In this document: piece by piece, positions 5,347-64,000 of the stretch
Layout of the letters: the number at the start of each line of letters is the position of its first letter
How positions within the stretch are numbered: the stretch's first letter is position 1
Assembly: GCA_043770095.1 (NCBI GenBank)
Contig: JAYVIR010000026.1
Coordinates: forward strand, 44,678-108,677
Direction: 5' to 3'
Origin: Eubacteriales bacterium
GTDB lineage: Bacteria; Bacillota; Clostridia; Peptostreptococcales; Acidaminobacteraceae
DNA length: 64,000 nt
The notes under the pieces: generated by a model
What the model was told of the DNA's origin: nothing
Databases searched by the model: none
What the model saw: only the letters and a program-made list of their open reading frames with translations
Made by a program: the position numbers and the translations under genes

Positions 5347-7191
5347 ATGCTCAAAAAAACAATTGCACTTTCAACAGCGCTCTTAATAATCGTCAGCGGA
5401 CTCTCGGTAAGCAACCAATCAAACTTTACCAGCTACGCAGAAAGCCTTAAAACTGTCACGACAAAACTGGAAAAAGTAAAATACTCAGGTGGAACAGCAA
5501 CGTTCACAAGCATCCGAGTGCCTCTAAACGATCCTAAAATTCAAATAGTGACCACAACTGCCGCAAAGAAAATTGGACAGGTAGACACTTTGTCAAACCT
5601 TGTGCTTCAAGAAAATGATGAGATGGGCAAGGCAATTGCTGGCATCAATGGCACTTTTTTTAACGCTTACACAGATTTCCAGCCTGCGGGCACGATCATC
5701 AAACAAGGACAAGTTGGGCATATTTCCAATACGGGTAGTGTCATCGGCTTTGGAACGGGTGGGCAGCTTAGTGTTGAACCTTTGGACATTAAGATAGAAG
5801 GCAGTTCGCAGGGACAGTGGGTGTGGCCTTATAATTGGTATGCATGGAATTTGAATCATTTCTACAATGACCCAAAAGCGGTTATGATTTTTGATAAACA
5901 ATATGTTGGTGTTAAACCTAAACACGATTTTGCCGCTATTTCAGTGGTGAAGGGTGTGGTCACTAGCATTCAAGTGGGCGCTTTTAACATCCCTTCAGAA
6001 GGGTTTTTAGTGCTGACAAAAGATGCTGATATTCTTAAGAAGTTAACGCTTAAATCGACTGCGGATTACCGTTTTGTTTATGGCGTCAAAACATATGACG
6101 CAAAGAAAACCATTACCCCATATGATGCCAGTCAGATTCAGTTTGCGGTTGGCGCGGGGCCAATATTGGTGAAAAACGGGCAAGTGGTTGCTGACCCAAT
6201 AAAGGAAGGGTTTACAGAGCTAAAAATTCTGACGAATAAAGGACAGCGCAGTTTTATTGGGGTGACACAGGACAAGCAGTTAATTTTTGCTTCAGTGCCA
6301 AGTGTGACGGTTAAGGAATTGGCAGAGATTGCAAAGCTTTTAAAATGCCAAGAAGCGATTAATTTGGACGGCGGCGCATCGTCAGGCACCTATGCAAATG
6401 GAAAATCGGTGGTCACACCTGGGCGCAAAATCAGCAATGCCTTGGTGGTAAAAGTATTAAATGAATTGCCAATTGGGATTAGCCTCAATGGAAAATCGGT
6501 ATTTTTGAGCTTGCCAGCAGTCTATAATCAGAAGGATGAGCAGGTTTATGTGCCTGAAAAAGAATGGCTGAATCGATTGGGATTTGCAAATAAAGCACAG
6601 ACCTTGAGCAGTGTGACGACCCTTAAAATCAAAGGGGTTGATTATGTCGCCCTTAAAGAACTCATAGACGATCTGATGGGGAAATATGATTATAATAAAG
6701 ACACGCGCAGTCTGGAAGTGGTCATAACCCTTGTATCGGATATTTTGAGAGAGGCAAGTTCGCTTGAAACTCAGGGGCAATTGCCACTCGCTGCGGCGCG
6801 TTATAAAGTGGCTCTTGCGAAAGATACCAATAATATTGTCGCCCTAAAGGCGCTCGCGAACCTATACCATTTGAAGTTGAATGAGCCATTAACAGCGGTG
6901 CCCTATTATCAAAAAATCATTCAATTGGAGCCGAAAAACGTCTCAGTAATATCAAGTTTGGGGTGGGTATTATATGCTCAAACTCAGTTAAACGATGCAA
7001 AAGTTCTTTTTGAAAAAATAGTTTCCTTGTCACCAGATTCGGCGGTGGGCTATTACGGCTTGGCGATGGTGCTTTCGCATAACCAAATTAACGACACCAG
7101 CGGTGCTAAAGCAAATTTTGAAGCCGTCTTAAAACGTTCGCCAACCAAAGAGCAGAAGGCAATTTGCACGACATATATTAATAGTCATTGA
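5347..7191 (+). CDS. Secreted phosphodiester-glycosidase-family protein with copper-amine-oxidase-like N-terminal (stalk) domain and C-terminal TPR repeats
   Basis: Signal peptide. The central region (GINGTFFNAY..., NLDGGASSG) resembles the DUF2233/NAGPA phosphodiester glycosidase family. NGKSVFLSLPAVYNQ...VDYVALKELIDDL is a Cu-amine-oxidase N-domain repeat. The C-terminus has TPR-like repeats. Confidence 0.55.
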   Translation: MLKKTIALSTALLIIVSGLSVSNQSNFTSYAESLKTVTTKLEKVKYSGGTATFTSIRVPLNDPKIQIVTTTAAKKIGQVDTLSNLVLQENDEMGKAIAGINGTFFNAYTDFQPAGTIIKQGQVGHISNTGSVIGFGTGGQLSVEPLDIKIEGSSQGQWVWPYNWYAWNLNHFYNDPKAVMIFDKQYVGVKPKHDFAAISVVKGVVTSIQVGAFNIPSEGFLVLTKDADILKKLTLKSTADYRFVYGVKTYDAKKTITPYDASQIQFAVGAGPILVKNGQVVADPIKEGFTELKILTNKGQRSFIGVTQDKQLIFASVPSVTVKELAEIAKLLKCQEAINLDGGASSGTYANGKSVVTPGRKISNALVVKVLNELPIGISLNGKSVFLSLPAVYNQKDEQVYVPEKEWLNRLGFANKAQTLSSVTTLKIKGVDYVALKELIDDLMGKYDYNKDTRSLEVVITLVSDILREASSLETQGQLPLAAARYKVALAKDTNNIVALKALANLYHLKLNEPLTAVPYYQKIIQLEPKNVSVISSLGWVLYAQTQLNDAKVLFEKIVSLSPDSAVGYYGLAMVLSHNQINDTSGAKANFEAVLKRSPTKEQKAICTTYINSH

Positions 7192-7221
7192 CGCCACTTC
7201 TTAATGAAGGGATGCTGATAA

Positions 7222-7272
7222 AAAACACCCTATAAGCCAGGCTTTGATAGTCTATGCTCATAGGGTGTTTTG
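7222..7272 (+). terminator. Terminator hairpin (aacaccctat ... atagggtgtt + T-run)
   Basis: 10-bp stem with a long loop, then tttgc. Downstream of the 5347 gene. Confidence 0.45.
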
Positions 7273-7432
7273 CATAAGCGATAGTTAATAATGAAGCTGT
7301 ATTATTTTTTTAATTTGACCTTCAAAACTTAAAATAATAAAATAGAAACCGTGCGTAAGCATAATTTGGTATAATTAAGGTAATGAACTTTTCTGGAATC
7401 ATTTACTGGCAATAATGCTAAGGGAGTTGTTT

Positions 7433-47902: not shown

Positions 47903-49582
47903 ATGATGTTTAAATGCTTTTTGAATGTCAGAGAGGAGAAGGGTTCTTATGACCCTTCTTTTTCTTTTGAGAAATTGGAAGAGACGACGGCAAAATTGTT
48001 AAATGTGGTGGGCGAATATGTAACTTCTACAGATGAAATTGATATGGCGATGAAGGAAATGAGCACTTCCGGTATTCAATTGTCGTGCTCGGCAGAAGAA
48101 CAACTCCACAATATACAAAAGATTAAATCGTTTACAGGAAAAATTTACGAAAGTGCGGAGGAAAACCATCAGTCGGTAAGTGCCATTTTAGAAAATTCAG
48201 AAGCGGTTTATCACGGCGCAGTGAGCAAACAAGCTGCCATAAATGATGCCGTCACTGCTTTTGATAAAGTTCAAGAACAGATGGGTGAGGCTTGTCAAAC
48301 GGTAGAAATTCTTAGAACAAATGCCTCTGAAATTTTAAGCATGATGGGAGCGGTTCGAAACATTGCCTCTCAGACAAATTTACTAGCACTTAATGCGTCA
48401 ATTGAAGCGGCAAGGGCAGGGGATAGCGGCCGAGGTTTCGCGGTCGTCGCCTCTGAAGTTCGAAAGTTGTCAGAGGAAACGGAACTTGTGGTAAAGCAAA
48501 TGTCTGCGCTGATCCAACTGGTAGATCAAAGAGCTGGGCAGACGCAATCGACAATGATGCAAACCATCAGCGGTATCAAACATCAGTCGGGACAACTCGA
48601 ACATATCAGCGAAGACGTCAGCGAAATGGTCACTCAAATTGGCGCGACGCTCTTGTCCGTAAAAGATTTAGATCAAAATAACCAAGACCTTGTGGTTTCG
48701 TGCGATGAAGTGGATCGGCTGACAGAGGCCATTACGCAGAGTGTCTCAGGCAATGTGGCGTCTACCAAACAACTCAGTCAAACCATTAAAGAAGAAGCAG
48801 AGTCTTTGAAGCGGCTGGTTCATATTGGCGGACGTTTTGAGCATTTGACAGAGCAGTTTTATGAAATTCTTGAAACGGAAGTAACGCATGATTCTCAAAA
48901 GGGGTTGGTGCTCGTGACTTCTGCCTACCCACCGTATATTATTGCGCAAAAAGATGGTGTGGTTAGCGGCATTGACATCGACTTGGTCAGAGAGGCTTTT
49001 AAAAGAGCAGGCATTGATGTTCGAGTGCATTTGAGCTCTTTTGATCAGTCGCTTCGATTGGTTCAAAAAGGGTTTGCAGATTTGGTGCCAACGTTGTCTA
49101 GAAATGAAGAACGCTCCAAAACCATGAATTTTACGGAGAATTACAGAGAGCCAACTCGGTATGTGTTTGTTGCGTTGAAGCAGTCAAATCTGGAAATAAG
49201 TCGATTTGAAGCATTAAGAACTTGGAGAGTCGGCGTTATGAGGGGTTATGGCTACTGGGAACAATTTGTTAAAGACAACCAGATTCAAAAAGACATCAGC
49301 GAAAAAGAAGAAATCATGTTCAAAAAGCTTTTCAAAGGCCAAATCAATTGTTTGATTATGAATGAATACGCAGCGCGTTATTTTATTGTTTCAAATGGGC
49401 TACAAGAGCAAGTTAAAATGCTGGCATACAGTCACAGCGAGCAAGCGGGTTCAGATACGCGCATTGCCTTTACGAAAAAACGTGACACAGAGGCGCTTTG
49501 CAAACTATTCGATGAAAAAATGGCTCAGATGAGAACGGATGGGACTTTGAAACAGATTGAGGAACGGTATTTGAAGATTTAA
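47903..49582 (+). CDS. Soluble chemoreceptor-like protein: MCP signalling domain fused to a C-terminal family-3 solute-binding domain
   Basis: No TM segment. Canonical MCP hairpin-tip sequence ASQTNLLALNASIEAARAGDSGRGFAVVASEVRKLSEET. The C-terminal about 230 aa is SBP_bac_3-like (LVTSAYPPYIIAQKDGVVSGIDIDLVREAFKRAGIDV...). Confidence 0.7.
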   Translation: MMFKCFLNVREEKGSYDPSFSFEKLEETTAKLLNVVGEYVTSTDEIDMAMKEMSTSGIQLSCSAEEQLHNIQKIKSFTGKIYESAEENHQSVSAILENSEAVYHGAVSKQAAINDAVTAFDKVQEQMGEACQTVEILRTNASEILSMMGAVRNIASQTNLLALNASIEAARAGDSGRGFAVVASEVRKLSEETELVVKQMSALIQLVDQRAGQTQSTMMQTISGIKHQSGQLEHISEDVSEMVTQIGATLLSVKDLDQNNQDLVVSCDEVDRLTEAITQSVSGNVASTKQLSQTIKEEAESLKRLVHIGGRFEHLTEQFYEILETEVTHDSQKGLVLVTSAYPPYIIAQKDGVVSGIDIDLVREAFKRAGIDVRVHLSSFDQSLRLVQKGFADLVPTLSRNEERSKTMNFTENYREPTRYVFVALKQSNLEISRFEALRTWRVGVMRGYGYWEQFVKDNQIQKDISEKEEIMFKKLFKGQINCLIMNEYAARYFIVSNGLQEQVKMLAYSHSEQAGSDTRIAFTKKRDTEALCKLFDEKMAQMRTDGTLKQIEERYLKI

Positions 49583-54633: not shown

Positions 54634-54954
54634 ATGGATCAAAATCTCATGAACGTGGACGAATGTCCTGTGAAATATACGCTATCAGTCATTGGCGGCA
54701 AGTGGAAACCGATTATTGTCTATCATTTGTCTGCGGCTGGCGTCATGCGCTACGGCGAAATTAGAAAATCCATGCCAACCATTACGCATAAAATGCTCAG
54801 CACACAGTTAAAAGAGCTTGAAGCCGATGGTTTGGTTCTTAGAACGGAATATCCTCAGGTGCCGCCTAAGGTGGAATATCAGCTAAAAGAAAAGGGCCTT
54901 TCTCTAATGCCTGTGTTCACAGCGATGGGAGCGTGGGGCACGGCCAATAGATGA
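54634..54954 (+). CDS. HxlR-family (DUF24/MarR-like) redox-responsive transcriptional regulator, divergent from azoR
   Basis: CPVKYTLSVIGGKWKPIIVYHL...MRYGEIRKSMPTITHKMLSTQLKELEADGLV is the HxlR signature with an N-terminal conserved Cys. ATG 54634 follows RBS aaaggagag. Confidence 0.8.
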   Translation: MDQNLMNVDECPVKYTLSVIGGKWKPIIVYHLSAAGVMRYGEIRKSMPTITHKMLSTQLKELEADGLVLRTEYPQVPPKVEYQLKEKGLSLMPVFTAMGAWGTANR

Positions 54955-56372
54955 GAATGAGAATTTTGTTAACGGTGCTGTTTTTGAGCTTTTTTCTTGA
55001 AAATACGCTTGTTGCAAATGCAAATGAGCAATCAATGATGTTAAATATCAATGAGAATGCTTCGTCATTTAAGAATGTGTCGACTTTGCAAAAGACGGTT
55101 ACCTACGAAGACAACAGCTTCTTTTTTGTCCGAGAGGTCGATTTCAAAACAACGAATCTTTATACGACAAGTTTTAAAGTGAAGGGAACGAAAGGCACCT
55201 ATTCTTATTTTGATAAAAATAAGAAAATGATAACAAAACCATTGACAAATGGCACTTTGCCTATGACAGACATGATAGTCATTGATACGGATCAATATCA
55301 TATGTTTTTAGGGCAGCCCTACATGTATAAATCTTTAGGTCAGGGCGTCATTCAAGCAACCAATAGCCCGGCGACAATGAAAATTTCAAAACAAAGTGAC
55401 GCATGGGTGGTTACCTATTCTTTCAAACCTCAGAAAACAATTGAAAACGGTCTCCTGTACGGCGTGGGGTCAAGCAAGCTTCTAATCGATGTAAAGAATC
55501 CGAGTACAATCAATGTATGGAAAAATTACGACTTCACTCAAAAAGCAAAGTTAGGCATAGATGGTTATTACTATGAATGTCCTCCAACCTACACACCCTG
55601 CGCAAAGGGTGCCTATTGGAATAGTCCGTCCATGTATTTGATCAATGCAATGGTCAAAAATGGCGGATCGCCTCTTTCAGACATACTCGCAACCTCATAC
55701 TTATCAATAGCGGAAAATAATATCAATCAAGAAGGCTTTATACCATCGCAACCAGAAAGCAAATGGTTAAAAGAGACCTACGACATAGGCAGTGGTTTCT
55801 TTGACACGAGGTTTAATGCGGATATGATTGAAATCTATATGTTAGCCTATCAAAAGTTTGGCATTGAAAGTTACCAAATTGCCTACTTGGAACTTGCCAA
55901 TTATTATTTAAAGCATGGAGAAAATAACCATGTTGAAATGTATCTTTCAAGCGAAAATGCAGACTCAGAGGAGAACTTACCTGGGTGGTTGATCGAAGAT
56001 TATGGAAAAGGTGACAGTCTAATCAATACGCACACTGCGCTCAATCATCAGCTGCAGGCAATTCATGTGTTTTTGAATCTATATCAACTTGAAGGCGAAG
56101 ACCTGTATTTGGATTACGCTTATAAAATGATTCGCGGGATTGAATACACACAGAACCAATGGATTATGCCAGACAGAAACCTTGAATATGCCTACATGCC
56201 AGACGGGCAAATGGGCTATGTGGATTACGAGTACCTCACCTACAATGACTTCTATAAAGTGCAAAAGGATCTTGTTGGCATAACGGGAACGCGCAATGTC
56301 ATTTTTGATATTCTAATGGACAGTAAACGGGAATGGATGAACGCAAACAATATAAGCAATTACAATCAGTAG
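54951..56372 (+). CDS. Secreted protein of unknown function
   Basis: Signal peptide (LLTVLFLSFFLENTLVANA). 473 aa with no recognisable catalytic motif. Overlaps the hxlR stop. Confidence 0.4.
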   Translation: MRMRILLTVLFLSFFLENTLVANANEQSMMLNINENASSFKNVSTLQKTVTYEDNSFFFVREVDFKTTNLYTTSFKVKGTKGTYSYFDKNKKMITKPLTNGTLPMTDMIVIDTDQYHMFLGQPYMYKSLGQGVIQATNSPATMKISKQSDAWVVTYSFKPQKTIENGLLYGVGSSKLLIDVKNPSTINVWKNYDFTQKAKLGIDGYYYECPPTYTPCAKGAYWNSPSMYLINAMVKNGGSPLSDILATSYLSIAENNINQEGFIPSQPESKWLKETYDIGSGFFDTRFNADMIEIYMLAYQKFGIESYQIAYLELANYYLKHGENNHVEMYLSSENADSEENLPGWLIEDYGKGDSLINTHTALNHQLQAIHVFLNLYQLEGEDLYLDYAYKMIRGIEYTQNQWIMPDRNLEYAYMPDGQMGYVDYEYLTYNDFYKVQKDLVGITGTRNVIFDILMDSKREWMNANNISNYNQ

Positions 56373-56383
56373 AAAGCAAGGAC

Positions 56384-57583
56384 ATGCAGGGGGAAAAAGT
56401 TGTGAATTCAAACGTTGTAACGGGTAAACCGGCGCTGATGAAGCGCATCAACCGAAATCTGATTATCAAACTGATCATCAAGCAGGGCGAAATTTCAAGG
56501 TCGCAATTGGCTAAAATGACGGGACTCGCACTGCCGAGCGTCATGCGAATTGTGGACAGTCTTGTTGAAGAGGGACTTGTCGAAGAAACGAGGAAGGGTG
56601 ACTCAACAGGTGGTCGAAAACCGAATCTCATTCGCCTCAATAGAGACTATAAGGTGATCGTAGGCATTGAAATTGCCATCCAAAGCAGCATTGTGATTAC
56701 GGATTTTGGTGGTGCGCCACTCGCACGTTGGTCGTCGGGGCAAATGGCTTATATGACGCCAGAGGTTATGCTTGAGATGCTTTTAGAGCAAATGCAGGAC
56801 ATGCTTTCTGAGCGAAATATTGAACCTGAACAGGTTGCCGGCATTGGTATTGGAACGCCAGGCATGAATTTCAAATATCAAAATGAAGTCAAACGTTCCA
56901 TTTTAAAAGGATGGGAGCAAATTGACGTCAAAAGCTGGTTTGCATCGCGTACGCCTTATTCAATTGTCGTAGACAACGTTGCCAGAACACGCACCTTAAG
57001 CGAACAGTGGTTTGGGCTTGGGCGCGAGTACAAGAGTTTTCTGTATATATTTGTCGATCAGGGCGTTGGCGTGGGCATCATGAACAACGGTGTCATTTAT
57101 GAAGGCGCAATGGGGGCTGCAGGTGAGTTTGGGCATATGTCGATTGACATAAATGGAAGGCCTTGCTACTGCGGGAAGAAGGGTTGCATCGAAATGTACG
57201 TTTCAGCAGGGGCGCTGACCAATGAGGCGGATCAGTTGGGCATTTGTGCTGGTGCGTCCGAGGCAATTTCGTTTGAAGCGATTATTAAAAGGGAAAATGA
57301 ACCTGAAGTCCGTGATATTTTTGTGCGCGGCGGTCAGGTATTAGCCTTTGGGATTGCGAATCTCATAAATTTATACAACCCGCCAGTGGTTATTCTTGGT
57401 GGCATTGTGCCAAAGTTGAGCAAAGCGTTGGTTGAAGAGGTCAATTTAGCCTTAGAGTCTTTTATTTTTCATAACGATGCGTGCAAAACGCCTGTTCTTC
57501 TCAGCTCGCTCGACAATGAACAGTTTTGTCTTGGCAGTATTGCCTTGGTGATTGATGATTGTTTTAAAACGGTGGAATTATAG
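56384..57583 (+). CDS. ROK-family transcriptional regulator (N-terminal wHTH + ROK sugar-kinase-like domain)
   Basis: wHTH (EISRSQLAKMTGLALPSVMRIVDSLVEEGLV). ROK glycine-rich motifs and the Zn cysteines CYCGKKGC. The alternative GTG 56402 has a better RBS. Confidence 0.75.
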   Translation: MQGEKVVNSNVVTGKPALMKRINRNLIIKLIIKQGEISRSQLAKMTGLALPSVMRIVDSLVEEGLVEETRKGDSTGGRKPNLIRLNRDYKVIVGIEIAIQSSIVITDFGGAPLARWSSGQMAYMTPEVMLEMLLEQMQDMLSERNIEPEQVAGIGIGTPGMNFKYQNEVKRSILKGWEQIDVKSWFASRTPYSIVVDNVARTRTLSEQWFGLGREYKSFLYIFVDQGVGVGIMNNGVIYEGAMGAAGEFGHMSIDINGRPCYCGKKGCIEMYVSAGALTNEADQLGICAGASEAISFEAIIKRENEPEVRDIFVRGGQVLAFGIANLINLYNPPVVILGGIVPKLSKALVEEVNLALESFIFHNDACKTPVLLSSLDNEQFCLGSIALVIDDCFKTVEL

Positions 57584-57676
57584 CAAAGTCTATGGTAGAA
57601 TCAACTTAGTAACAAATTGTAAGTAAGTTGACGAAACGTCAGTAACCTAATAGTTGCTCTCATGGAGGATGGTAAA

Positions 57677-58375
57677 ATGAAACGTTCTGAAATCAATATA
57701 AACCTAAGCTGGGCAGTGTCGCTCCTTGAAAAACACCAAATCACGTTGCCTCCTTTTGGGTACTGGACACTGGAAGATTGGCAGGCAAAACGTGAGGAAA
57801 CCAAGGTCATTCGGGAGATTATGCTCGGTTGGGACATTACGGATTTTGGCAACAATCGCTTCGACGAATTTGGGGCTGTTCTTTTTACGCTCAGAAATGG
57901 CTCTCTTAAAGATTCAAGTCTCGGGACGCCATATGCGGAAAAACTGATTTTGCTCAAAGACGGGCAACGACTGCCACTTCATTATCATGCCAGCAAAACG
58001 GAAGACATTATCAACCGGGGGGGCGGCGTCCTTGCCATCAAGCTCTACAATGCCTTGCCAAGTGGTGAAGTGGATTATGAAGCGCCTGTAAGCGCTGACC
58101 TTGACGGCGTTAGGAAAATCTTTAAACCGGGGGAAGAAATTCACATCGCGTCGGGCGCTTCCATTACGCTTAGGCCTTTTCAGTACCATCTGTTTTGGGC
58201 AAAAGAAGGAAAAGGCGACTTGGTTTGCGGCGAAGTGTCTTCGATCAACGACGATCAGACGGACAATTACAACGCAGAACCCGTCAGCCGATTTTCAACC
58301 GTTCAGGAAGATGAGAAAATCATTTACCCATTATGCAATGAATATGACCGTGTCCTAGGAGGTCTGTCAATATGA
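57677..58375 (+). CDS. Cupin-fold D-lyxose/D-mannose ketol-isomerase family protein
   Basis: RLPLHYHASKTEDIINRGGGVLAIKLY and HLFWAKEGKGDLVCGEVSSINDD resemble the D-lyxose isomerase cupin family. ATG 57677 follows RBS ggaggatgg. Confidence 0.5.
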   Translation: MKRSEININLSWAVSLLEKHQITLPPFGYWTLEDWQAKREETKVIREIMLGWDITDFGNNRFDEFGAVLFTLRNGSLKDSSLGTPYAEKLILLKDGQRLPLHYHASKTEDIINRGGGVLAIKLYNALPSGEVDYEAPVSADLDGVRKIFKPGEEIHIASGASITLRPFQYHLFWAKEGKGDLVCGEVSSINDDQTDNYNAEPVSRFSTVQEDEKIIYPLCNEYDRVLGGLSI

Positions 58376-59331
58376 AGTCGTTTGATATCATAGCCGTGGG
58401 CGAATTGCTGATAGATATGACCCCCGTGAAAGTAGACGGACATTTGCATTTTAGGGCTAATCCAGGCGGTGCGCCGTGCAATTTCCTAGCGATGGCACAG
58501 CTGATGGGCGCTAAGACGGCCTTTATTGGAAAAGTGGGCGATGACGCTTTTGGAAAACAACTTAAAGAGACGGTCGAAAACGTGGGAATAGACACTTCTA
58601 ATCTTATGATGGACGCTTCAAAGGCAACGACGCTTGCCATTGTCAATTTAGATGAATTTGGGAATCGTAGTTTTGGTTTTTACCGAAAAGGCTGCGCCGA
58701 CGTCTCTCTTAGAACGGATGAAATTAATTTTGAACTCTTGGATCAGACGAATGCCGTTTATTTTGGATCGCTTGCCTTTACGGATGAGCCTATACGATCT
58801 GCTGTAGTGGCACTTCTGTCGAAGGCTGTCGAAAAGAAACGTTTGATTTGCTATGATCCGAACTACCGACCACTGCTTTGGGATTCTCAGGAGCAAGCGG
58901 TAAAAGCCATGATTGGTGGTTTAAAATATGCAGACATCTTAAAGGTGTCTGATGAAGAAGCACTCCTACTAAGTGGCGCTTCTACTTTGGAAGATGCTGC
59001 TACAATCCTTGTGGCAGAGGGCATTCAATTGGTCTGCATCACCATGGGAGAAATGGGCACATTGGTTGCCTTTAAAACAGACGTTTTCCATGTCCCTGCC
59101 ATTGAAACCAAGGTTGTGGACACGACGGGTGCAGGCGATGCCTTTTTCGGAGCGCTCGTCCAGCAAATTACGTGTTGTGGGCGTCTTTTACAGGACATTT
59201 CAGTTGAAGCTATGAGACAGATGGTGCTTACTGCAAACGTCGCAGGTGGTCTTTGCGTGCAAAATTACGGCGCTATCCCAGCGCTTCCAAATCGGGAGAA
59301 AATACTTGCGGTATTAGCAGAACAAGTTTAG
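58372..59331 (+). CDS. PfkB-family carbohydrate kinase (fructokinase-like)
   Basis: N-terminal GG motif region (GELLIDM...GGAPCN) and the C-terminal DTTGAGDAF anion-hole motif. Overlaps the isomerase stop (ATGA). Confidence 0.85.
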   Translation: MKSFDIIAVGELLIDMTPVKVDGHLHFRANPGGAPCNFLAMAQLMGAKTAFIGKVGDDAFGKQLKETVENVGIDTSNLMMDASKATTLAIVNLDEFGNRSFGFYRKGCADVSLRTDEINFELLDQTNAVYFGSLAFTDEPIRSAVVALLSKAVEKKRLICYDPNYRPLLWDSQEQAVKAMIGGLKYADILKVSDEEALLLSGASTLEDAATILVAEGIQLVCITMGEMGTLVAFKTDVFHVPAIETKVVDTTGAGDAFFGALVQQITCCGRLLQDISVEAMRQMVLTANVAGGLCVQNYGAIPALPNREKILAVLAEQV

Positions 59332-59513
59332 AATATCAAACCATATAGAATCAATCTAAACGGAGCATCCTTTTTAAATGAAGGGTGCTTTTTTCATATG
59401 GAGAAGTGTAAATATCCATAAAGGTGCCCGTTTTGATTGATTGCAAACAGGGTAAAATAGTAATATAAAAAATATTTGAAATAGCAGGTAAATAAATATT
59501 GGGGGTTATTTCT

Positions 59514-60824
59514 ATGAGGATTAGCCAAAAAAATAAATATTATGTTTTTGTTTTTGCCATTGCCCTCATGATGACTGTCCTAATAGGCTGTCAATCAACG
59601 CCAAAACCTCTGGTATCTGAGAAGAAACCTGTTGCAGTCATTGCAAAACAGCTTTCTTTTCAACATTATTTTTCGGGATCGATCAGTGGTGGCATCGATC
59701 AGATGGTTCAAAAAATGAATGAGCAGTCGGATCAATTTAAAATTACAGCAGTACCACTAGATCATGAAGCTTTTAAAGTGAGAATCAAAGAGGCAATCGA
59801 TTCAGTCGATGCGGCAGATTTATATTCTTACTGGGCAGGTGCGAAGACCCAAAATCTTTCAGCGTCACTTGAACCTTTAAATGATGTTTGGGACGCTCAA
59901 AAATTGGACGATAAATTTCCAAAATCCATTATGGAATCGGCAGTGACTTATGACGGCAAGAAGTTGCTACTGCCTATTACGCAGCACTATGTCGGCATTG
60001 TCATCAATCAAAAAATCTTTGATGAGAATGGTCTTAAACCACCAAAGGATTGGACTGCGTATTTGAAAACATGTGAAACACTTAAATCAAAAGGCATTAT
60101 ACCCATCGCGCTAGGCTCAAAAAGCAAATGGCCGGCGCAATTTTGGTTTGATTATATTTTACTCAGGACGAGCGGCTATGATTATAGACAAACCTTGATG
60201 GCGGGTAAAGCGAGTTACACCGACCCTCAGGTCATGAAGAGTTTTGAACTATGGAAAATCCTATTGGACCGAGAGTATATCAATAAAGATGCGAATGCGC
60301 TGGAATGGGATACGGGCGCCGCAGAAATGGTTTATAGCGGAAAAGCGGCTATGACGCTCATGGGAACGTGGGTGATTGGCTATTATGAAGATTCAGCACA
60401 TCAGTGGAAACTAGGAACGGACTATAACATCATCGACTTTCCAGTGATGGATAGTTCTATTTCAAGTTGTGCCTTAGGGCCAATTGACGGCATTGTTATT
60501 CCGAAGGCTTCGATCAATAAGGAGCAGGCTAAGAGCATTATTGTGAATTTTGCGAGCGTAGAAAATCAAAAGGTGATGAGTCATGATTCGGGCGCCTTTG
60601 CACCAAGTTTGGAAGTTGAAGATGCCTTTTATTCACCTGAGCGCAGCGCGCTGCTTAAGCGAATAAGGCAAATGGAGCGCTGGGCATTTAATTATGATTT
60701 GGCGACACCCCCAGAACGTGCAGAGATTGGCTTAGATGCTTTCCAAGATTTTATTCAGTATCCTCAGGAATACAAATCAATTCTTGAAGTCGTTCAAAGG
60801 AAAATAGAAAAATTAGGCCATTAG
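59514..60824 (+). CDS. Sugar ABC-type solute-binding lipoprotein (family 1)
   Basis: Lipobox LIGCQS. Family-1 carbohydrate SBP fold. No cognate permease or ATPase genes are adjacent. Confidence 0.75.
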   Translation: MRISQKNKYYVFVFAIALMMTVLIGCQSTPKPLVSEKKPVAVIAKQLSFQHYFSGSISGGIDQMVQKMNEQSDQFKITAVPLDHEAFKVRIKEAIDSVDAADLYSYWAGAKTQNLSASLEPLNDVWDAQKLDDKFPKSIMESAVTYDGKKLLLPITQHYVGIVINQKIFDENGLKPPKDWTAYLKTCETLKSKGIIPIALGSKSKWPAQFWFDYILLRTSGYDYRQTLMAGKASYTDPQVMKSFELWKILLDREYINKDANALEWDTGAAEMVYSGKAAMTLMGTWVIGYYEDSAHQWKLGTDYNIIDFPVMDSSISSCALGPIDGIVIPKASINKEQAKSIIVNFASVENQKVMSHDSGAFAPSLEVEDAFYSPERSALLKRIRQMERWAFNYDLATPPERAEIGLDAFQDFIQYPQEYKSILEVVQRKIEKLGH

Positions 60825-60866
60825 CACATCCTATGGGTCCATTATAGAAGGAAAGGAGTGAAACTG

Positions 60867-63029
60867 ATGAGAAATTCACTAAAGCTTAAACTCAGAACAA
60901 AAGTAATCATCATTTTCACATTTGCCTTGCTCATTCTCATTTTAAACGCCCTGTTTTTTTCATCAAGCATTCAAAGCATTGCCAACCTTTCGCAGACCAT
61001 TCGCCAAATCGATGGACTGACTCCTAGTATTCAAGCGGTTAATCTTAATAAATTAACCTTTATACAAAGTCGTCAAAGAGCTGAATCCGAAGCGGTACTG
61101 GAAGGCCTGAACGGACTTCGCCGAGAAATTCAACTGTTATACAAAAACAAATGGCATTCAGAAATAAGCATACAAAACTTAGAAAAATTATATGGCATAT
61201 TGGATCAGTATGAAGCGACTTTTCAGGAATTTGTTGTTATGGAAGATCAAAAGCTAGCGCTTGAGGGCGATTGGAAGTCAACAACGGTCAAATTTTTTGA
61301 TCAATTGGCGGATTTAAGAAATCAATTGGATCAAGGCAAGATACAATTGACTAAAGTGCAAGACATCAAAGTATTAATGAACCAAATGAGTGAGATCGTT
61401 ATTCATGAGTCACTAGCAGAGACGCTTAAAGGCATTGACGTCAAAATGCTAAACACAGCTAAAGAGACTTCGTTAAAAGCAAAGGGCGCTGAACTGTTAA
61501 AACTGTTTACAGAAAACGGGAATGCTGTTATTGGCTATAAATTTATTAAGCTCTCAGAGTCGTATGACGAAACTCTCTCGCAATATCGAATTTTTCAATC
61601 TTCTCAAAACCAGAGATTAATCATACTCAACCAATCAACGATATCTTTACTGGACACTTCCAATAAATTGGTTGAAACATTGCAGACACAAATGAATCAG
61701 CAGACTAAAATGTTAATGAACAGATTGCTATTGACGGTTATAACGTCGATAATACTTGCTGGTCTATTGACCTGGTTTTTCGCTGCAGATTTGTTTAAAC
61801 GCTTAAAAAGTGTGGTAAGCGCTACTGAACTGATAGCGGAAGGGATTTATCACTTGCCATTAGAACTTTCTAGCAACCAAGACGAACTGGATCACTTGTC
61901 CAATAGCGTTAATCATATGGCGTTAAAATTACAGGCAGCTCAAGCTGAACTGGTAGAGAATAATAAAGATCTTGAAGAAAAAATTGTTGCAAGAACCTCT
62001 CAATTATCGAAGACTCTTGAAGATTTAAAACGCATCCAATTTCAAATTATTCAGTCTGAAAAAATGGCTGCCGTGGGACAACTCATTTCTGGAATTGCCC
62101 ACGAAATAAACACTCCGCTAGGTGCGATTAATTCCTCTATCGGAAACACCAAACATGCCATTGAACAGTTGCTACAATTGTATCCTGTAACCTACTGCAA
62201 TTGGTCTGATCAAGAAAAACGTGCTATGAAAAGAACCTTAGAATTGATGGAGAAAAAAACACAGCACCTGACAACGCGCGAAGAACGTCAACTTAAAAAA
62301 CAATTAACGACCTTGATGGCTGACTTTGAACTCGACTCACAGTCGGATATAAAAGAATCGTTGATTAATATTTTGTCAGATCTCCGAATTTACAATCCTA
62401 AAGAAGTTATTTTTCTTTTTAAGGAACCAAGAATTTTGGAAATTCTAGACCTTGCCAAAAAGAACAATCAGGTAACAAGAAGTCTTGAAACCATTACGAT
62501 TTCAAGCGAACGCGCTTCAAAAGTGGTAACGGCGCTCAAGAATTTTGCGCACTATAGTCCAGATGGCAAAATGGAATTGGCAGATTTAGTAGATGGCATT
62601 GAGCTTATACTGACGCTCTTTCATAGTAAAATTAAGCAAGGTGTTGAGCTTATCAGGGAATATCAGCCCTTGCCCCTTGTTTTATGCAATCCAGATGAAC
62701 TCAATCAGGTTTGGACGAACATACTATCAAATGCCTTTCAAGCCATCACCTATCAAGGACGCGTTGTCATTCGAACCAGAATTGAAGGTGCATTTGTAAA
62801 AATCGAGTTTGAAGATGATGGCCCTGGCATTCCGCTTGAAAGCCAAGACCATATTTTTGAACCGTTTTATACAACGAAAGTGACCGGCGAGGGCACTGGA
62901 CTTGGGCTCGATATTTCTAAAAAAATCATACAAAAACACCACGGTCAGATTACCTATACAAGCCAACCAGGAAAAACAATTTTTACTATTGAACTTCCTG
63001 TCAATATAAAGGAGGATCGCAATGCCTAA
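60867..63029 (+). CDS. Sensor histidine kinase with large extracytoplasmic domain, HAMP, HisKA (HEINTPL) and HATPase domains
   Basis: TM1, about 270-aa extracytoplasmic region, TM2, HAMP, H-box HEINTPLGAI, and G-boxes (GTGLGL). ATG 60867 follows RBS aaggag. Confidence 0.85.
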   Translation: MRNSLKLKLRTKVIIIFTFALLILILNALFFSSSIQSIANLSQTIRQIDGLTPSIQAVNLNKLTFIQSRQRAESEAVLEGLNGLRREIQLLYKNKWHSEISIQNLEKLYGILDQYEATFQEFVVMEDQKLALEGDWKSTTVKFFDQLADLRNQLDQGKIQLTKVQDIKVLMNQMSEIVIHESLAETLKGIDVKMLNTAKETSLKAKGAELLKLFTENGNAVIGYKFIKLSESYDETLSQYRIFQSSQNQRLIILNQSTISLLDTSNKLVETLQTQMNQQTKMLMNRLLLTVITSIILAGLLTWFFAADLFKRLKSVVSATELIAEGIYHLPLELSSNQDELDHLSNSVNHMALKLQAAQAELVENNKDLEEKIVARTSQLSKTLEDLKRIQFQIIQSEKMAAVGQLISGIAHEINTPLGAINSSIGNTKHAIEQLLQLYPVTYCNWSDQEKRAMKRTLELMEKKTQHLTTREERQLKKQLTTLMADFELDSQSDIKESLINILSDLRIYNPKEVIFLFKEPRILEILDLAKKNNQVTRSLETITISSERASKVVTALKNFAHYSPDGKMELADLVDGIELILTLFHSKIKQGVELIREYQPLPLVLCNPDELNQVWTNILSNAFQAITYQGRVVIRTRIEGAFVKIEFEDDGPGIPLESQDHIFEPFYTTKVTGEGTGLGLDISKKIIQKHHGQITYTSQPGKTIFTIELPVNIKEDRNA

Positions 63030-64000
63030 AAAACCGATTATTCTCTGTGTAGACGATGAAGAGATTATTCTTTCTAGTTTAAAAAATGAATTGCAAAACA
63101 TATTGGGAAATCAGTATGATTTTGAGTTTGCTGAGTCTTCGCAGGAGGCTATAGAATTGGTTGCGGAGCTGTTAGCAGACAATCGTGAATTTGCACTTGT
63201 GATTTCAGATTACTTAATGTCTGGTGGCAATGGTGACACGCTTTTGATAACGTTGCACGAACAAATTCCTAAAGCTGTAAAAATATTATTAACCGGACAA
63301 ACGGCATATGAAGGTATGGTTAATGTTGTCAACCGAGCTCAACTGTATCGCTTCATTGTCAAGCCATGGAATCGGGAAGATTTTATGATGACCATTTTAA
63401 GCGGCTTAAAAAGTTTTGTCACCGACAAAACCATTGAAGAACAAAATGCCAAATTAATGGATCTCAATCGAAATTTAGAAGCATTGGTAGACCAGCGTAC
63501 TCAAGATTTGCTCAATACGCAAAAGGAACTTCAAGAGGCCAATCAAATTCTCAAGGCAGAAAAAGAGCAATTAAGAATCGCTTCGATTACAGATCAATTG
63601 ACGCAACTTTTTAACCGTGCCTATACGCTTCAAAGGCTACAAGATGAAATACACGCATTTGATCGATACTCTGAGCCACTTTGCGTTTTGATGTTAGACA
63701 TAGACAATTTTAAAAGCGTCAACGATCGATTTGGCCATTTGGTGGGTGATCAGGCGCTGATTAAAGTGTCATCGGCGATACAAACGAGCGTTCGTAATAC
63801 AGATGTTGCAGGGCGCTATGGCGGCGAGGAATTTATAGTGATATTCACACATACCGCCCTAGAACAAGCCCTGAAGACCTCTGAGCGGATTTGCATGACC
63901 ATCAAAAACCTTGTTTTTGATACCCTCGACTTAAGTGTAACCATTAGCGGCGGTCTAAAGATGTATGAGGGGACAAGCATAGACGAATTTTTATCAAGTG
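63022..64000 (+). CDS. Response regulator receiver + GGDEF diguanylate cyclase (3' end beyond window)
   Basis: Overlaps the kinase stop. REC domain (LCVDDEE...ISDYLMSGG...KPW), coiled coil, and a GGDEF domain with an intact RYGGEEF active-site motif. No stop codon within the window. Confidence 0.85.
   Translation, partial: MPKKPIILCVDDEEIILSSLKNELQNILGNQYDFEFAESSQEAIELVAELLADNREFALVISDYLMSGGNGDTLLITLHEQIPKAVKILLTGQTAYEGMVNVVNRAQLYRFIVKPWNREDFMMTILSGLKSFVTDKTIEEQNAKLMDLNRNLEALVDQRTQDLLNTQKELQEANQILKAEKEQLRIASITDQLTQLFNRAYTLQRLQDEIHAFDRYSEPLCVLMLDIDNFKSVNDRFGHLVGDQALIKVSSAIQTSVRNTDVAGRYGGEEFIVIFTHTALEQALKTSERICMTIKNLVFDTLDLSVTISGGLKMYEGTSIDEFLSS

Follow-up and report, generated by a model that had tools for sequence, protein, structure and literature searches.

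A three-gene unit at the end of the window

We analysed a 64,000-nucleotide stretch of DNA (the window) from an Eubacteriales bacterium of the Acidaminobacteraceae (assembly GCA_043770095.1, contig JAYVIR010000026.1), concentrating on positions 59514-64000, where three co-directional genes on the + strand encode a solute-binding protein (SBP), a histidine kinase (HK) and a response regulator (RR) with REC and GGDEF domains. The genes and the putative control signals in front of them are as follows.

59362-59391, + strand: terminator-like hairpin found by pattern scan, a 12-bp stem followed by a T-run, 31 nt past the stop codon of the preceding PfkB kinase gene; suggestive only, as terminator-like sites in the region overall are not enriched relative to shuffled sequences
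59441-59469, + strand: candidate sigma-70-like promoter 5' of the SBP gene, TTGCAA-17 nt-TATAAA; weak, read by eye, and omitted by the promoter pattern scan because its -10 hexamer ends in A
59501-59505, + strand: ribosome-binding site (RBS) GGGGG of the SBP gene
59514-60824, + strand: SBP lipoprotein gene, 436 aa (Pfam, NCBIfam)
60867-63029, + strand: sensor histidine kinase gene, 720 aa (Pfam, motifs, transmembrane prediction)
63022-64000, + strand: REC-GGDEF regulator gene, incomplete, as the contig ends where the window ends (Pfam, NCBIfam, orthologue comparison)

For the HK, an ATG start at 60867 is preferred over a GTG at 60858: an RBS, GGAAAGGAG, lies 8 nt upstream of the ATG, and the public gene call matches this start exactly. 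The HK gene, with its own RBS, therefore begins 42 nt after the SBP stop codon, and not 33 nt as in a first-pass annotation made from the sequence alone. The ATG of the RR gene at 63022 overlaps the HK stop codon by 8 nt (ATGCCTAA). Other elements of that annotation held up, namely a kinase with a large extracytoplasmic domain and an overlapping REC-GGDEF regulator with an intact active site, both described below.

The same order of SBP, HK and REC-GGDEF regulator recurs in three other contigs, designated L003 (SBP 88% identical), L084 (57%) and L087 (51%). The flanks of the triad are unrelated among these contigs; in L003, for example, a peptidase M4 lies upstream. No ABC permease was found near the triad in L003 (including 7 kb downstream), L084 or L087. 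The 64-kb window contains no CUT1-type (MalF/MalG-type) permease, and its sole ABC ATPase is part of a MacB/FtsX/HlyD efflux set. The SBP had been described as an orphan family-1 protein with no permease or ATPase partners, forming a transporter-less unit with the kinase and the regulator, and these comparisons bear out that description. Our computations show the domain content, the intact motifs, an operon-like arrangement, retention of the triad in four contigs and homology of the sensor domain to those of partners of the same SBP family elsewhere. We think it likely that the three genes form one operon for a binding-protein-dependent two-component system with cyclic di-GMP (c-di-GMP) synthesis as its output.

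The solute-binding protein resembles known sugar binders

The SBP carries a signal peptide and a lipobox, LIGC, with its lipidation cysteine at Cys26. It matches SBP_bac_1 (PF01547) with 71.4 bits (cut-off 26) and SBP_bac_8 (PF13416) with 70.8 bits, also above the cut-off. The Pfam matches and an AlphaFold2 (AF2) model with a pLDDT of 90.3 identify it, in both sequence and fold, as a family-1 (CUT1-type) periplasmic binding protein of type II. By sequence and predicted structure, its best matches in the PDB include the galactose-specific binder AcbH (TM-score 0.81-0.90), the Thermus glucose/galactose-binding protein, the Pseudomonas putida glucose-binding protein and several binders of xylo- or chito-oligosaccharides. 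All of the closest solved relatives are CUT1 sugar binders.

Database searches returned 1701 homologues at E<=1e-5. A scan of GTDB species genomes with SBP motifs that the window protein also carries found 478 relatives that are 41-51% identical to it and none above 51%, so the source organism appears not to be represented there; the relatives are spread over Rhodocyclales, Desulfobacterota, Spirochaetes, Negativicutes, Fusibacter and others. In an alignment of 31 SBP sequences, about 60 columns do not vary, among them those of the lipobox Cys26 and of many aromatic residues. We propose that the SBP is the ligand-binding subunit of the sensor.

The kinase combines a putative helical sensor domain with a core unlike that of other SBP-linked kinases

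The HK consists of a first transmembrane segment (TM1, residues 13-31), a predicted helical periplasmic domain within approximately 250 extracytoplasmic residues, a second transmembrane segment (TM2, residues ~286-308), a HAMP domain, a signalling helix, a dimerization and histidine-phosphotransfer (DHp) domain with H412, an insertion and a catalytic ATP-binding (CA) domain. Its main features map to the window as follows.

60966-61721, + strand: periplasmic sensor domain, residues 34-285, candidate SBP docking site (profile matches, AF2)
61791-61934, + strand: HAMP domain, residues 309-356 (Pfam PF00672, 28.7 bits against a 25-bit cut-off)
62100-62102, + strand: codon of His412, the phospho-acceptor within the H-box motif AHEINTPLG (motif search; invariant in four orthologues)
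62688-63005, + strand: HATPase_c domain, residues 608-713, with N, G1, F and G2 boxes (Pfam, 92 bits)

All of the kinase boxes were found: H412, N618, G1 at 650 (D650xGxG), F664 and G2 at 674 (G674). The HisKA profile stayed below threshold (19 against 26.9 bits) because of an insertion of ~85-90 aa after the H-box helix. These extra 85-90 residues lie between the H-box helix and the CA domain, within HK residues ~430-605 (window 62150-62690), and contain no Pfam domain. The spacing from H-box to G1 is 234-238 aa in the window clade, as against 145-161 aa in all other SBP-linked kinases. The same class of kinase core is common in metagenomes, where it occurs with other sensors and regulators. 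A scan of JGI metagenomes with the kinase alignment, keyed on kinase-core motifs, returned 80 kinases, all with other sensors; none of the 80 had this SBP upstream and none had a REC-GGDEF regulator downstream. The exact SBP-HK-REC-GGDEF triad is rare.

The sensor domain has no Pfam match above threshold. It scores 18.7 bits against the HBM family (PF16591; cut-off 29.8 bits), and sub-threshold HBM matches were obtained for five of ten related sensors. We compared a profile of 46 sensors with the PDB and found the best solved matches in two recent entries, 9smy ('HAMP domain-containing protein', E 1e-8) and 9snn ('ancestral PcpI', E 8e-8), the latter matched in two stretches, indicating a bimodular protein; a further match was to the HBM domain of McpS (E 0.08). 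A single-sequence AF2 model of the domain is all helix and of low confidence (pLDDT 64.5), and Foldseek with this model gave insignificant coiled-coil matches only. The domain evolves quickly, with a mean distance of 0.93 compared with 0.51 for the SBP, and a phmmer search of 1.84 billion representatives returned six matches, one of which is a repetitive protein. On the basis of the profile matches, we call it a putative divergent sensor of the helical 4HB/HBM-like type. HBM-like sensors are documented as receivers of SBPs in TorS-TorT and CtpL-PstS (PMC8050422). Searches for 'PcpI' found nothing relevant among the literature searched, and nothing was found there for 9smy either; if PcpI is an SBP-dependent receptor, it would be an informative parallel to the sensor domain described here.

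The regulator is a predicted diguanylate cyclase

The RR matches Response_reg (PF00072) with 46 bits and GGDEF (PF00990) with 126 bits, and the two domains are joined by a coiled-coil stalk of ~50 aa. Its REC domain has D11, D12, D63, T91 and K114, which provide an acidic pocket, a phospho-acceptor Asp and the conserved Thr and Lys and are invariant in four orthologues. The GGDEF domain has D226/D228 for metal binding, N234, D243 and the motif GGEEF at 267-271 (within RYGGEEF). An inhibitory I-site, R258-N-T-D261, is followed by VAGRY and then GGEEF, which places RxxD five residues before the GGDEF motif. Domain-level NCBIfam matches include the PleD family (128 bits) and DgcR (111 bits), and no equivalog cut-off was reached. 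We considered whether the RR could be a Hypr-GGDEF, that is, a cGAMP synthase, and ruled this out, as the base-specifying position is Asp243. From PleD, Hypr GGDEF and GacA we take Asn and Asp to be the guanine-specifying residues, as opposed to the Ser of Hypr cGAMP synthases; Asp243 then argues for a GTP-using cyclase. Together, these residues argue that the RR is a predicted, catalytically competent cyclase that would make c-di-GMP.

The window RR lacks ~19 C-terminal residues, as its contig (ena:ERZ27315213:k141_4018172) ends at the window end. One concern was that the protein might continue into an unexpected output domain past the window. The L003 orthologue, 345 aa long, shares 94% identity with the window RR along the whole of the 326 residues available and extends 19 residues past them, and the L084 orthologue ends at the same point; a hidden EAL or DNA-binding output domain is thereby ruled out. 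In L087, the regulator (5955-7421) has the layout REC-GGDEF-REC with 488 aa, and the extra C-terminal receiver retains the KPW motif.

The SBP is paired with a receptor domain across phyla

To place the triad within its family, we predicted the genes of 80 SBP loci and asked what the immediate downstream neighbour of the SBP gene encodes (n=61). A HAMP-containing partner was found in 52 of the 61. The partner was a HATPase_c kinase in 29 (24 of them also with REC), a membrane protein with GGDEF in 20 (12 also with EAL), a methyl-accepting chemotaxis protein (MCP) in one and a BPD_transp_1 permease in nine; in the window, the partner is a kinase and does not itself carry a GGDEF or EAL domain. 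The junctions between SBP and receptor genes are often gaps of 1-20 nt or overlaps, and the pair persists in at least five phyla while the cytoplasmic output varies. Nearly all signalling partners share one topology, with a transmembrane segment at ~10-35, ~245 residues outside and a second transmembrane segment at ~270-300. Furthermore, a hidden Markov model built from the partner N-termini of other loci, with the window and L003 left out, matches the periplasmic segment of the window HK alone (E 2e-19). The shared topology and this match suggest that the SBP and the receptor domain were inherited together while the output changed, and signalling from the SBP to c-di-GMP appears to be the norm of this SBP family.

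Six partners have a shorter loop of ~140 aa. These short-loop kinases (L043, L055, L057, L075, L078 and L082) belong to an SBP sub-clade that is sister to the transporter-linked clade. A loop of this length corresponds to about one four-helix module instead of two, which suggests that there are two forms of the receptor domain, one monomodular and one bimodular.

A neighbour-joining tree of the SBPs groups all permease-linked members into a single clade, and output types switch within the sensor-linked clades. Distances between SBPs correlate with those between periplasmic domains (rho 0.70, Mantel p<=0.001), compared with 0.57 for HAMP, consistent with a co-evolving pair. The window clade lies near a Fusibacter clade in which the partner is a 534-559-aa protein with the layout TM-sensor-HAMP-GGDEF. 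One of these one-protein receptors, L035, aligns to residues 7-388 of the window HK (sensor, HAMP and signalling helix) and, from the same junction, to residues 152-343 of the RR (stalk and GGDEF) with 40% identity. By this alignment, the window system looks like a direct SBP-to-cyclase receptor with a phosphorelay of DHp/CA and REC in between. The motif found at the junction, LExxVxxRTxxL, is common in signalling proteins generally, and the window arrangement may have arisen either by insertion or by independent assembly of modules. What sets the window clade apart appears to be a phosphorelay that is built on another kinase core and stands between receptor and cyclase.

We read the history of the system as follows: a unit of SBP and receptor domain, fused directly in relatives to GGDEF, GGDEF-EAL, kinase or MCP outputs, would here have acquired another kinase core together with a free-standing REC-GGDEF regulator. 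It is possible, and we suggest it tentatively, that the SBP and the HBM-like receptor domain constitute a phylum-spanning plug-and-play sensory cassette for one conserved small ligand, attached in evolution to kinases, hybrid kinases, cyclases, cyclase-phosphodiesterases and a chemoreceptor, of which the window represents a rare state split by a phosphorelay. If true, control of c-di-GMP in one step and in two steps could be compared for the same input in natural systems.

Transport as an alternative role, and the likely ligand class

The permease-linked clade bears on another explanation of the triad, namely that the SBP mainly serves an ABC importer encoded elsewhere, so that its place beside the kinase would reflect a dual role, as for MalE, ChvE and GltB, or would have no signalling meaning. 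The protein is a bona fide CUT1-type SBP with a predicted sugar-binder fold, and its sister clade is found in operons with two BPD_transp_1 permeases. Moreover, sensor-linked and permease-linked SBPs have 78 conserved positions in common and differ consistently at only two, so there is no obvious loss of a transporter-docking surface. This explanation has to contend with the absence of a CUT1 permease from the window and from the surroundings of the other three triads, with the HAMP receptor that is the next gene in 52 of 61 loci, often at a very close or overlapping junction, and with the restriction of permease-linked members to a single clade. We therefore consider a primarily transport-related role unlikely, and favour the SBP as the input of the adjacent kinase.

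Because there are 78 shared conserved positions and only two distinguishing ones, the SBP family may bind one ligand class throughout, and the operons of the transporter-linked clade may reveal it. These loci (L066:6825-15588, L067:967-8426, L068:6787-14186, L076, L077, L051, L044/L048 and L069) come from Spirochaetes, Vecturithrix and metagenome-assembled genomes of Syntrophomonadaceae. Their conserved operon contains genes for a LacI regulator, two permeases, an IolD-like thiamine pyrophosphate enzyme (~625 aa) and an IolG-like GFO/IDH/MocA dehydrogenase (~388 aa); L066 also has an acylating aldehyde dehydrogenase of the SauS-like type, with 552 bits where the cut-off is 600. All of these proteins score far under the equivalog cut-offs. 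The operon has the look of a so far uncharacterised route for breaking down a cyclitol- or sugar-like compound. Taking the IolD- and IolG-like neighbours of the sister clade as a lead, the ligand of the SBP is probably a small sugar or a cyclitol.

The adjacent sugar module

Upstream of the triad, at 56333-59331 on the + strand, a ROK regulator with an N-terminal winged helix-turn-helix, a D-lyxose/D-mannose isomerase and a PfkB kinase form a compact module (ROK 154 bits, Lyx_isomer 289 bits, PfkB 181 bits). The isomerase and PfkB kinase genes overlap by 4 nt, and the best matches of the PfkB kinase are fructokinase and IolC-like families, both under their cut-offs. The first-pass annotation placed the triad next to this ROK-regulated module and named mannose or lyxose as the signal to try. 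The adjacency is real, and the functional link is not supported. A 182-nt spacer with the terminator-like hairpin inside it lies between the PfkB and SBP genes, and the module is absent beside the triad in L003, L084 and L087. As the triad recurs with other flanks, without the module, and as a terminator-like hairpin separates the two units here, we conclude that the triad is a self-contained unit whose proximity to the sugar genes is either incidental or specific to this lineage. The module is present in the window and not in the close relative L003, and is so a recently gained or lost sugar island.

The same observations speak against a system tuned to D-mannose, D-lyxose or a related sugar and coupled to the ROK, isomerase and PfkB genes. 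Such coupling would fit the co-directional arrangement of the adjacent genes in this contig and the monosaccharides (galactose and glucose) bound by the closest solved SBPs. Apart from the spacer with its hairpin and the lack of the module beside the other triads, the conservation of the SBP binding site spans phyla in which no such module is nearby, and the transporter-linked relatives adjoin IolD- and IolG-like enzymes, not isomerases. We found no support for mannose or lyxose specifically as the ligand, and regard a link of this kind as quite improbable.

Proposed mechanism

We infer the following mechanism for the three-gene unit, including the contact between SBP and kinase and the cyclase activity; the response could be of either sign, activation or inhibition. 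The lipid-anchored SBP would bind a small carbohydrate-like ligand outside the cell and dock on the helical HBM-like extracytoplasmic domain of the kinase. The signal would pass via TM2, the HAMP domain and the signalling helix to alter autophosphorylation at His412. Phosphotransfer to Asp63 of the RR would then promote dimerisation through the stalk, as in WspR and DgcR, and two GGDEF domains would make c-di-GMP, with feedback inhibition via the RxxD I-site.

The kinase might instead sense a signal directly through its helical periplasmic domain, as the McpS-type HBM domain binds organic acids, leaving the SBP outside the input. In favour of this, direct binding of small ligands is common among HBM and 4HB domains, the sensor profile is related to 4HB/HBM structures and some SBP homologues have no adjacent receptor. 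Direct sensing is very unlikely, however, given that the SBP-receptor pair is kept in at least five phyla while the output changes, that the tight or overlapping gene junctions suggest co-translation, and that the SBP tree is followed more closely by the periplasmic domain than by HAMP.

Several points nevertheless weigh against an SBP-dependent system with c-di-GMP output. An Rfam scan of the window found nothing, and so no c-di-GMP riboswitch, and no other c-di-GMP gene was found in the window. A distant ABC permease may also use this SBP, whose conserved positions are largely those of the transporter-linked clade. Shared descent alone can produce the co-variation of distances between SBP and periplasmic domain. 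Finally, the predicted fold of the sensor domain rests on the sub-threshold HBM matches and the low-confidence model.

For the window itself, SBP-dependent control of c-di-GMP synthesis is a reasonable functional annotation and no surprise; the cassette with swappable outputs is the more interesting result. Known signals for c-di-GMP control are few, and so are characterised SBP-dependent receptors. This SBP family is strongly conserved and its structure is predictable; identifying its single ligand would provide an annotation for hundreds of kinases, cyclases and phosphodiesterases in one go. Interchangeable outputs on one extracellular input would also provide a matched set for studying coupling, within which the window clade and the one-protein version of Fusibacter form a natural pair for comparing phosphorelay-mediated with direct control of a diguanylate cyclase.

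Other genes of the window

Three further observations concern genes outside the triad. At 54951-56372 on the + strand, and also at L003:6101-7522, lies a gene for a 473-aa protein with an N-terminal signal-like segment and without a Pfam or NCBIfam match. It adjoins an HxlR-family regulator in both the window and L003, and its 3' end in the window overlaps the start of the ROK regulator by 40 nt. At 47903-49582 on the + strand, a 559-aa protein has MCPsignal in its N-terminal half and SBP_bac_3 at its C-terminus; no N-terminal transmembrane segment or sensor is evident from the domain layout, and this inverted order is unusual for a chemoreceptor. We also noted an oxaloacetate decarboxylase of the Na+-pumping type and, on the related contig L085, a small acid-soluble spore protein (SASP); with the lipoprotein SBP, these suggest a Clostridia-like Firmicute.

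Comparison with known systems

That an SBP can activate a receptor is a well-reviewed principle (PMC8050422). Among the closest known systems are TorT/TorS/TorR of E. coli and Vibrio and PstS/CtpL, in which a free SBP docks on an all-helical HBM-like sensor between two transmembrane segments, as predicted for the window, and the SBP gene lies with signalling genes and not with a transporter, as it does here (PMC8050422). TorT, however, is a Peripla_BP_1 protein that binds trimethylamine N-oxide, and TorS is a hybrid kinase acting on an OmpR-type regulator, whereas the window has an SBP_bac_1 (CUT1) protein, a non-hybrid kinase and a diguanylate cyclase as regulator.

Control of c-di-GMP by an SBP, which the first-pass annotation implied to be novel, is in itself not new: GGDEF or GGDEF-EAL proteins are the partners in 20 of 61 loci of this very family, and published examples exist. 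In NspS-MbaA and ScrB-ScrC of Vibrio, a transport-free SBP homologue controls c-di-GMP turnover via a receptor encoded next to it, as proposed for the window (PMC8050422). There, the receptor itself is a GGDEF-EAL enzyme with a dCache-like sensor, a design of the receptor as enzyme that many homologues of the window cassette share, whereas the window has a putative helical sensor and a step from kinase to REC. Hk1-Rrp1 of Borrelia burgdorferi shares with the window the sequence of SBP-type recognition, histidine kinase and REC-GGDEF regulator (PMC4013479), but Hk1 is a hybrid kinase that includes REC and Hpt and carries its SBP_3-like domains within the same protein, whereas the SBP of the window is a family-1 lipoprotein in its own right. 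According to a review of c-di-GMP sensing, domains of the periplasmic-binding-protein clan are frequent in c-di-GMP enzymes, and only SBP_bac_3 has been studied (PMC8846402).

Sugar-responsive systems of Firmicutes, CuaD/CuaS/CuaR, XylFII/LytS/YesN and HptA/HptS/HptR, resemble the window in combining a sugar SBP, a kinase and a regulator in an operon without a transporter (PMC5663094), and GltB of GltB/GtrS/GltR is, like the window protein, an SBP_bac_1 member. In these Firmicute systems and in GltB/GtrS/GltR, DNA-binding regulators of the AraC or OmpR type switch on the cognate ABC transporter; the window differs from the Firmicute three-component systems in its predicted second-messenger output and in having no linked transporter. 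We found no description of a free SBP_bac_1 protein combined with an HBM-like kinase and a REC-GGDEF regulator, or of the SBP-receptor cassette as such, in the literature searched, the coverage of which was incomplete. Within that literature, the combination of a free-standing SBP, a kinase and a REC-GGDEF regulator is still new. Like regulators of the WspR/DgcR/PleD type, the RR has a REC domain, a helical stalk and a GGDEF domain with GGEEF and an RxxD I-site. It has a single REC domain where PleD has two, and in contrast to Wsp, its input would come from an SBP-dependent kinase and not from a chemosensory Wsp complex.

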